This document shows, piece by piece, positions 43,942 through 44,860 of a stretch of 64,000 bases of DNA. Location of the stretch: assembly GCF_013315695.1 (NCBI RefSeq), contig NZ_CP054353.1; one strand, written 5' to 3'. Numbering within the stretch: position 1 is the first letter of the stretch; each line of letters starts with the position of its first letter. The position numbers were made by a program, and so were the translations under genes. This DNA is from Escherichia coli. Its GTDB lineage: Bacteria; Pseudomonadota; Gammaproteobacteria; Enterobacterales; Enterobacteriaceae. Below the pieces are notes generated by a model. The model was not told where the DNA came from. It did not search any database and saw only the letters and a list, made by a program, of their open reading frames with translations.

Positions 43942-44860
43942 ATATTATCACTTACTGGCGGCTCATACTGAGCTGGTTAATGCTGTGCACACACAAACAA
44001 GCAATTCCATTTGTAATGTGCCTCCCTGGCAGTTTCATCCGGAACCCGGACGAAAGTAAAAATGCATATGAGTTGCACTAAAAAAGCGACTCACATTGTT
44101 CCGTTATAATGCCTGAAGTAGATCACAGAATATATCTTCAGGAATCGCATATCTATTAAGTTACTCACTCTTTTGTATTTATGACATGCGCGTGTTTGTA
44201 TAAATGTAAATGTGAGCCCTTGTTCCACTCTCGTGCAGCATCGCTGGTCATACGCGAACACGTACAAACAGCAATGGTGAGGCGGCATCAAGAGCAGGGA
44301 TCCGTCATTTATGCGAGCATTTTACCCCAAAAACCTTTTATTTATAAGGGTCATTGCGAATTATCTGATGCAAAGTTATGTTATGTTAGGCAAAGTAATC
44401 TTCTATTATTAATAAGCACAACAAAACCTTTTTGAATATTAAATAATAATTAATTAGCATCATCCTCATTCATTAATCCCGCTTAACAATAGTTTCACAC
44501 CTTGCACCCATTACGACACCTCGGAAATCATCACGCTGTTAAACTCTCCGTAATGCGGAAATATCATCATCACGATTCATTAGTGAATTCTTAAACGAGG
44601 CATTTTCAAACAATTATCTTACAGATAAAAAAACCACACTCACAATTAAGAATCAGAACAATTCACTACATAACATTAATTATTAAGCATATACACCTCA
44701 TTATTTTGCCATTATTAAGTTATTAACAGCACAATCAAGCCTTCCACTCTGGCAAAATCTTATTCTGCAGACCTTCAAAACGCCGTCCTGGGGGAGTACA
44801 TTGTTCTAAGCTGACTTCCACGGCAGGGAGTGGCGATAACAGCAAAAAAGGTCAAGATTC

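Follow-up and report, generated by a model that had tools for sequence, protein, structure and literature searches.

What does Escherichia coli hold in the long stretch of DNA between lrhA and alaA, where the RefSeq annotation places no feature, either in strain MS 21-1 or in K-12? The stretch occupies positions 43942-44860 of a 64,000-nt E. coli window, a term that stands here for the whole piece of DNA that was analysed and in whose coordinates all positions are given. It is the exact gap between the two genes and measures 919 bp; lrhA lies on the minus strand (ATG 43939-43941), alaA lies on the plus strand (ATG from 44861), and the genes diverge from each other. The region is 100% identical to that of strain MS 21-1. 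A sequence-only reading of the window had described about 920 bp of non-coding DNA between divergent lrhA and alaA and had ranked it among the longest non-coding stretches. The coordinates hold exactly, and the gap is the longest among the approximately 60 annotated genes of the window, with lrhA-nuoA (629 bp) and yfbL-elaD (411 bp) next. The answer that we consider very probable is that this is the shared control region of the diverging lrhA and alaA genes, complex in its build and receiving many inputs. Its main feature, a long lrhA leader targeted by small regulatory RNAs (sRNAs), Hfq and CsrA, is already known from published work. The additions made here are modest: a conservation map, spacing constraints, covariation in two stem-loops, and the finding that the open reading frames (ORFs) of the region are not conserved.

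LrhA controls motility (flhDC), type 1 fimbriae and the translation of RpoS, and, in recent reports, the expression of CRISPR-Cas (clustered regularly interspaced short palindromic repeats and associated proteins). As it controls so many lifestyle genes, the amount of LrhA is a real lifestyle switch, and its level is set in this region. The central mechanism has already been worked out in E. coli, where UhpU, ArcZ and RprA, together with Hfq, repress the long leader. A family-wide map translates into concrete mutagenesis targets; it also bears on the question of why DNA located 700-900 bp upstream of lrhA matters in work on Serratia, Pantoea and Salmonella.

The map is based on a scan with one genome per species, which yielded 80 Enterobacteriaceae loci. 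Both genes could be placed in 78 of them, and there the gap between divergent lrhA and alaA measures 764-1140 bp, in most cases 900-1010 bp. Conservation was mapped over 78 other Enterobacteriaceae species, and site counts are given out of 79 sequences. Photorhabdus/Xenorhabdus, Dickeya, Serratia, Yersinia (rovM) and Pantoea lie outside these 80 loci. The aligned gaps form a mosaic of constrained and free parts. The constrained parts that could be mapped are a module of ~115 nt under a CsrA crosslinking and immunoprecipitation (CLIP) peak, two blocks upstream of lrhA, and the alaA promoter with its stem-loop.

Base composition is uneven as well. The guanine plus cytosine (GC) content is 0.38 in the region and 0.51 in the whole window; it falls to 0.32 in the centre (44313-44760) and reaches 0.43 in the lrhA leader, so that the description of the region as very AT-rich fits the centre and applies less to the leader. 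The small inverted repeats that had been claimed are also there, in the form of three short inverted repeats accompanied by four direct ones, counted without comparison to chance. The low GC content of the centre relative to the window could be taken as a sign that this AT-rich DNA was acquired horizontally, or that it is foreign DNA silenced by H-NS. Such an origin is scarcely credible. Of 5426 complete E. coli genomes, 5425 contain the region, with identities of 97-100% (42 of the 5425 have no single-piece match spanning at least 80% of it). Moreover, it is syntenic, similar in length and marked by conserved blocks in 78 Enterobacteriaceae species, which contradicts a foreign origin, and its borders carry no mobile-element genes or repeats. 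Binding of H-NS as such is compatible with a shared control region.

The lrhA promoter and its conserved leader module

Among the contents that had been proposed for the gap was a long 5' leader, and published work confirms it for lrhA, whose 5' untranslated region (UTR) is 371 nt long in E. coli (PMC10578931). Fusion primer SM079, listed in the supplement of that paper, opens the lrhA fragment at ATAAATGACGGATCCCTGCT; since this sequence matches the minus strand from 44312, the transcription start can be fixed in window coordinates. The untranslated leader then runs on the minus strand from 44312 to the base before the ATG (43942-44312, 371 nt), as given by the published length and the primer. 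Between the window and K-12 it differs at four positions, all of them in the variable 5' part.

Read relative to the published start, the lrhA core promoter occupies 44319-44347 on the minus strand, with the -35 hexamer TTATAA (44347-44342), a 17-bp spacer and the -10 hexamer TAAAAT (44324-44319). The spacer measures 17 bp in 78 of the 79 sequences, and the -10 hexamer reads TAAGAT, TAGGAT or TAAAAT in 69; most species have TAAGAT. With a single exception, the species have predicted leaders of 334-464 nt. Studies by genomic SELEX (systematic evolution of ligands by exponential enrichment) place an RpoD peak in the lrhA-alaA spacer, and peaks of the RpoH and RpoE holoenzymes 373 bp upstream of the lrhA ATG. 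Transcription of lrhA runs leftward from this sigma-70-type promoter, with the start at 44312 giving a 371-nt untranslated leader.

Conservation within the leader is limited to the last ~115 nt, and the first ~255 nt vary between genera. In order, the conserved module comprises a stem-loop, CUGCCAGGGAGGCAC, AAAUGGAAUUGCUU, CACAGCA, a short hairpin, the UhpU site, and AGUGA before the ATG. It coincides with a peak obtained by CLIP sequencing (CLIP-seq) of CsrA, peak_226 (K-12 2406671-2406757, sequence ACUUUCGUCCGGGUUCCGGAUGAAACUGCCAGGGAGGCACAUUACAAAUGGAAUUGCUUGUUUGUGUGUGCACAGCAUUAACCAGC; PMC5694010), which a coordinate conversion made in this analysis places at 43971-44057 on the minus strand, or -117 to -31 from the ATG. 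The peak covers the stem-loop and the conserved GGA motifs, namely CCGGAUG in the 3' arm of the stem-loop, CAGGGAGG and AAAUGGAAUU. Additionally, both the ribosome footprints and the RNA of lrhA are approximately 2-fold up in a csrA mutant (PMC5694010). The last ~115 nt of the leader probably act as a conserved module of post-transcriptional control. Inputs on it would lower LrhA synthesis and mRNA stability, and would in this way tune motility, RpoS and other LrhA targets.

The stem-loop at the 5' edge of the module, UUUCGUCCGG-GUU-CCGGAUGAAA (44033-44055, minus strand), stays paired while its sequence changes. Four of its eight pairs are changed on both sides among 17 sequences of the Escherichia/Citrobacter/Salmonella group. 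The covariation score of 0.32, compared with 0.21 in shuffles, was reached by none of 500 shuffles, and 83% of the cells pair, compared with 31-54% when the 3' partners are slid. A hairpin of other sequence is predicted at the same leader position in most of the 65 species that were folded; its folding energy beats that of shuffles weakly (mean z -1.07). The best-conserved stretch of the leader is the motif AAAUGGAAUUGCUU (43999-44012, minus strand, -71 to -58), which is nearly invariant in the 79 sequences and sits within the CsrA peak. It is a candidate binding site for some factor.

The sRNAs that act on this leader have been studied experimentally. UhpU represses an lrhA-lacZ fusion through direct pairing, as shown with the compensatory mutations lrhA-M1 and uhpU-M1, and ArcZ and RprA repress lrhA too; McaS gave many chimeras and no effect (PMC10578931). 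In the lrhA-M1 gBlock of the same work, GCCGCCAGT is changed to GCCGCGAGT, that is, C(-16) to G at 43957. The mutated base places the UhpU pairing site at CGCCAGU (43954-43960, minus strand, -19 to -13), immediately 5' of the ribosome-binding region. This site is common to the examined Citrobacter/Salmonella-group sequences only, and is replaced in other genera; the UhpU-lrhA interaction has been reported as an Escherichia gain. RprA pull-down enriches lrhA mRNA, and RprA triggers the decay of this mRNA (PMC5861431).

A second candidate site, CACAGCA (43981-43987, minus strand, -46 to -40), is nearly invariant in the 79 sequences. It is complementary to the UGCUGUG seed of RprA and McaS (sRNA sequences from K-12), and it matches the position of the ArcZ site at -50 to -42 in Photorhabdus hexA (PMC11331407). 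To judge from the sequence, sRNAs may pair at CACAGCA in E. coli.

Hfq is connected to the region by a 1.5-kb lrhA mRNA seen only in the hfq mutant, and by co-immunoprecipitated RNAs of 150 and 350 nt assigned to 'ig-lrhA-alaA', upstream of lrhA (PMC4152368). Such species could point to one or more independent sRNAs, each with its own promoter and terminator, which would account for the Hfq-bound RNAs and for the effects of far-upstream insertions at once. In Serratia, for instance, insertions 825 bp upstream raise pigU expression, and the authors of that study regarded unannotated elements 'such as sRNAs' as possible. An independent sRNA gene is nonetheless quite improbable. The authors who recovered the Hfq-bound RNAs read them as fragments of the lrhA leader transcript (PMC4152368). 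The centre of the region (44501-44752) is unalignable between genera and holds no conserved unit, and conserved promoter-like elements are limited to those of lrhA and alaA. On neither strand did a scan of 43942-44860 predict a terminator-like site. An Rfam scan of the region at E values up to 10 returned only chance-level matches to eukaryotic small nucleolar RNA and microRNA models, far below the gathering scores. The consensus scan for promoters and terminators was uninformative: its counts equalled those of shuffles (three promoter-like matches where 3.5 were expected), and it missed both conserved promoters. The suggestion of an unannotated small RNA as a separate gene finds no support, given the missing internal terminator, the missing Rfam match and the leader origin of the Hfq-bound RNAs.

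A coding function has been considered too. The region contains an ORF of 66 amino acids at 44091-44291 on the minus strand and another of 84 amino acids at 44181-44435 on the plus strand, and a third, 28-codon ORF (MKLPGRHITNGIACLCVHSINQLSMSRQ) ends 10 nt before the lrhA ATG. Any of these might encode a small protein, and the third is identical in the window, in K-12, in a divergent Escherichia genome and in E. albertii. The two longer frames are not kept, however: the 66-amino-acid ORF is cut to 38 amino acids in K-12, both are reshaped or absent in the divergent Escherichia genome and in E. albertii, and the 84-amino-acid ORF is broken outside E. coli. The earlier verdict that there is no convincing ORF here agrees with this lack of conservation across Escherichia. 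The 28-codon ORF meets earlier in-frame stops in Citrobacter koseri and Salmonella when the alignment is read by eye, and has no ribosome-binding site recognisable by eye. Its conservation within Escherichia follows from the overlapping CsrA/sRNA module, which is conserved at the nucleotide level. A small protein is highly improbable.

The predicted alaA promoter and its short leader

On the opposite side of the region, conservation predicts an alaA promoter at 44774-44802 on the plus strand, with the -35 hexamer TTCAAA (44774-44779), a 17-bp spacer and the -10 hexamer TACATT (44797-44802). Both hexamers show little or no variation, and the spacer, though variable in sequence, measures 17 bp in all 79 sequences. 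Invariant hexamers around a variable spacer of fixed length are a promoter signature, from which a start at ~44809 and a leader of ~52 nt are predicted. Adjoining the -35 hexamer is the box CAAAATCTTATTCTG (44753-44767, plus strand), which equals the Lrp consensus YAGHAWATTWTDCTR with two mismatches and is conserved as CAAAATCTTCTnCTG, making it a candidate Lrp site. Lrp regulation of alaA was reportedly described by Kim et al. in 2010. In the proposed mechanism, alaA would be transcribed rightward from this conserved promoter, ~50 bp upstream of the ATG and abutted by the Lrp-like box.

Near the 5' end of the predicted ~52-nt leader lies the stem-loop ACUUCC-ACGGCA-GGGAGU (44814-44831, plus strand). 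Its loop and inner stem do not vary among the 79 sequences. At the outer pair, 51 sequences have AU, 14 GC and 11 GU; at a further pair, 40 have UG and 34 UA. Taken together, 81% of the cells pair, compared with 32-63% when slid. This pattern favours a function as RNA over that of a DNA palindrome, because the U-G wobble works on the alaA-sense strand only. A probable role of this conserved 5' stem-loop is to stabilise the alaA mRNA.

Upstream blocks, the variable spacer and the weight of the evidence

Between the two promoters, conserved DNA lies just upstream of the lrhA -35 hexamer, at -38 to -60, with GCGAATTATCTGATGCAAAG (44350-44400), which includes a 20-bp tandem direct repeat (44361-44380 and 44381-44400) and is a candidate regulator site. 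Two further conserved blocks lie at 44437-44500, 125-188 bp upstream of the lrhA start. The first, AATATTAAATAATAATTAAT, consists entirely of A and T (44437-44456). The second, ATTCATTAAT...CTTAACAATAGTTTCACAC, spans 44470-44500 and reads TGTGAAAnnAnTGTTAAG on the lrhA strand. Both were recognised by conservation, and their geometry is fixed to a large extent: a distance of 25 bp separates the blocks in 72 of the 79 sequences, and the A/T block lies 88-92 bp from the lrhA -35 in 75. Several candidates for the factors involved were tried. The sole match to an ArcA box in a scan of the region has three mismatches, which is chance level; boxes for CRP and RcsAB are poor matches to the TGTGAAA...TGTTAAG block by eye; and a scan of the region with the consensus of integration host factor (IHF) gave no match.

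Beyond the blocks lies an AT-rich variable spacer (44501-44752) that is unalignable between genera, with 31% pairwise identity. The distance from the alaA -35 to the upstream block has a median of 274 bp and an interquartile range of 269-277. Conservation of spacer length was rejected as a special feature, the lrhA-nuoA gap being more length-constrained (629 bp, interquartile range 626-631). The variable spacer contains an Lrp-consensus match with two mismatches (44654-44668, minus strand); there are two such matches in the region, and 17 in the whole window compared with 8.6 expected. It also contains a 12-nt inverted repeat, TAGTGAATTCTT/AACAATTCACTA, whose arms (44581-44592 and 44657-44668) stand 64 bp apart, one of them overlapping the Lrp-consensus match; the pair is near ~44645, where the start of a 712-nt lrhA leader reported in Salmonella aligns.

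Published work connects this DNA with global regulators. Chromatin immunoprecipitation (ChIP) of OmpR gave a raised signal in the lrhA-alaA intergenic region (PMC3945435), and Lrp is reported to bind and activate the lrhA promoter, as cited in PMC11331407. The most likely role of the upstream DNA is to bind global regulators, for instance Lrp and OmpR; the assignment of a given protein to a given block would be conjecture. In the proposed mechanism, protein-binding blocks would stand at fixed spacing upstream of the lrhA promoter (-49 to -88 and -125 to -188), and beyond them would lie the ~250 bp of AT-rich, unalignable spacer. The sequence-only reading had named multiple promoters with binding of nucleoid proteins among the typical contents of such regions. 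There are at least two divergent promoters here, and binding of global regulators is reported for Lrp and OmpR; for H-NS, Fis and IHF there is no evidence either way.

Several results weigh against the shared control region as drawn here. Two alternative helices in the last 80 nt of the lrhA leader were rejected, one long-range (GGAAUUGCUU/GAGCAACC) and one a local hairpin (GGG...GCUC/GAGC...CC); both are compatible with the alignment, at 81-86% paired, but neither shows covariation beyond shuffles. Duplex-energy scans of ArcZ, RprA, McaS and UhpU against the leader, full-length as well as windowed, gave no better energies than shuffled leaders did, which leaves the published experiments as the basis of the sRNA sites. 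No factor is assignable to the conserved upstream blocks. The alaA start near 44809 is a prediction from sequence, and the genomic SELEX paper gives other alaA hexamers, TTAAGA-17-TATAAC at ~44647-44675, which fall in unconserved DNA. Lastly, differential RNA sequencing (dRNA-seq) in S. Typhimurium showed a 712-nt lrhA leader.

If applicable here, this last result means that part of the supposedly untranscribed spacer is transcribed. It would imply a distal lrhA promoter at ~44645-44705 on the minus strand, a ~700-nt leader as in Salmonella, and transcription of most of the region, where insertions would then interrupt a long leader. The Salmonella start aligns to ~44645, by a weakly conserved TGGT-T/A-rich stretch; a consensus scan shows a promoter-like TTGATT-16-AATAAT on the minus strand at 44738-44711. 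Moreover, ~921 bp were required to complement fully in Pantoea, and pigU of Serratia is raised by insertions far upstream. A distal promoter is unlikely all the same. Studies in E. coli take the leader as 371 nt, and the 1.5-kb transcript seen in Northern analysis is closer to the length expected from the start at 44312 (~1.39 kb, counted to the terminator near 42921) than from one at ~44650 (~1.73 kb). Sequence conservation at the mapped distal start is weak, and promoter-like matches are no commoner in the region than in shuffles (3 compared with 3.5 expected). The 371-nt leader and the 1.5-kb transcript argue that the proximal lrhA promoter is the main one in E. coli; the Serratia, Pantoea and Salmonella data may leave room for a distal promoter or for an upstream silencing architecture.

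A related, tentative extension of the shared control region is that 44437-44770 forms a nucleoprotein platform of fixed geometry that couples both promoters and may include a condition-specific distal lrhA promoter with a ~700-nt leader. We regard it as possible, though on balance doubtful. The idea arises from two near-invariant blocks at fixed spacing, the Lrp-like box, and ~270 bp of length-constrained, unalignable AT-rich DNA. Transposon and insertion sequence (IS) insertions in the region alter the expression of lrhA in E. coli and of its orthologue pigU in Serratia, and an IS5 insertion 137 bp upstream of lrhA has been reported in a Keio ΔacrA stock. A platform or a distal promoter, if true, would explain the derepression of lrhA/pigU by insertions 800 bp upstream in Serratia and E. 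coli, as well as the need for the whole ~921 bp for complementation in Pantoea.

Relation to known systems and neighbouring observations

The lrhA side of the shared control region resembles the leaders of rpoS, flhDC and csgD. In each case a global regulator has a leader of several hundred nucleotides that is targeted by multiple Hfq-dependent sRNAs (UhpU, ArcZ and RprA for lrhA), whose pairing alters translation or stability. These genes also lie beside a long, AT-rich intergenic region with many regulators, and the genomic SELEX study groups lrhA-alaA with csgD-csgB and nanC-fimB. At csgD, RprA and McaS use the same UGCUGUG seed that is complementary to CACAGCA of lrhA. There are differences as well: rpoS is activated by sRNAs, whereas all validated sRNAs repress lrhA, and the lrhA leader departs from the long-leader class in being conserved in its last ~115 nt only.

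Also comparable are hexA of Photorhabdus/Xenorhabdus, pecT of Dickeya and pigU of Serratia, which are lrhA orthologues; in Serratia the divergent alaA neighbour has been shown as well. The 5' UTRs of hexA and pecT mediate repression by ArcZ, from positions -50 to -42 and -84 to -58, respectively (PMC11331407). As at lrhA, insertions in the intergenic DNA on the alaA side raise expression of the orthologues. Among the loci aligned here, E. coli shares the UhpU site of lrhA with Citrobacter/Salmonella-group sequences only.

With CsrA-bound leaders such as those of glgC and flhDC, the lrhA leader shares multiple GGA motifs (one within a hairpin), a CLIP-seq peak, and a rise in expression in the csrA mutant. 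It differs in that its peak (-117 to -31) leaves the ribosome-binding site uncovered, so that direct occlusion of the ribosome is not obvious. The alaA leader, in turn, recalls 5'-terminal stabilising stem-loops of the ompA type, as its stem-loop would begin ~5 nt from the predicted 5' end, ahead of the ribosome site. In that position such hairpins protect against RNase E. Unlike in the ompA type, the loop and inner stem of the alaA structure are invariant across the family, which is more than stability alone requires.

A few further observations concern individual genomes of the comparison. In E. coli SCPM-O-B-12142 (3147-4166), only the alaA-proximal 167 bp of the region are left, corresponding to window 44694-44860; an IS1 element adjoins them, beside an elaD fragment. 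An IS-associated deletion appears to have removed lrhA, the nuo operon and the genes as far as elaD from that strain. The record titled E. coli SCPM-O-B-8794 has an identity to the window of only 83% over the intergenic DNA and of 95% in LrhA. It is probably a cryptic Escherichia lineage, since its identity lies far outside the 97-100% of 5400 complete E. coli genomes. An lrhA-alaA locus typical of Enterobacteriaceae, with LrhA 78% and AlaA 94% identical to E. coli, is present in CACSKA010000019.1, a record titled Chryseobacterium sp. 18061; the locus is closely similar to that of a Citrobacter isolate from the same study, which suggests a mislabelled or contaminated assembly.

On the other side of lrhA, the 629-bp lrhA-nuoA gap (42374-43002), the second-longest in the window, has a median length of 629 bp (interquartile range 626-631) across 73 Enterobacteriaceae species. 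The CsrA CLIP-seq supplement (PMC5694010) lists a separate peak there, peak_225 (K-12 2405645-2405748), which lies over the lrhA stop and 3' region and is labelled as nuoA 5' UTR. At the right end of the window, 59962-64000 holds an IS66-family element (ISEc23 transposase, tnpB and a tnpA pseudogene), and beside it, adjoining yfcH, are a gene for an enzyme of the trans-sulfuration family and nhaC; this segment looks like strain-specific accessory DNA. Near the left end, at 537-1561, a gene for a transporter of the major facilitator superfamily (MFS) lies between rhmD and yfaU, and in the identical strain MS 21-1 it is annotated as a frameshifted pseudogene.

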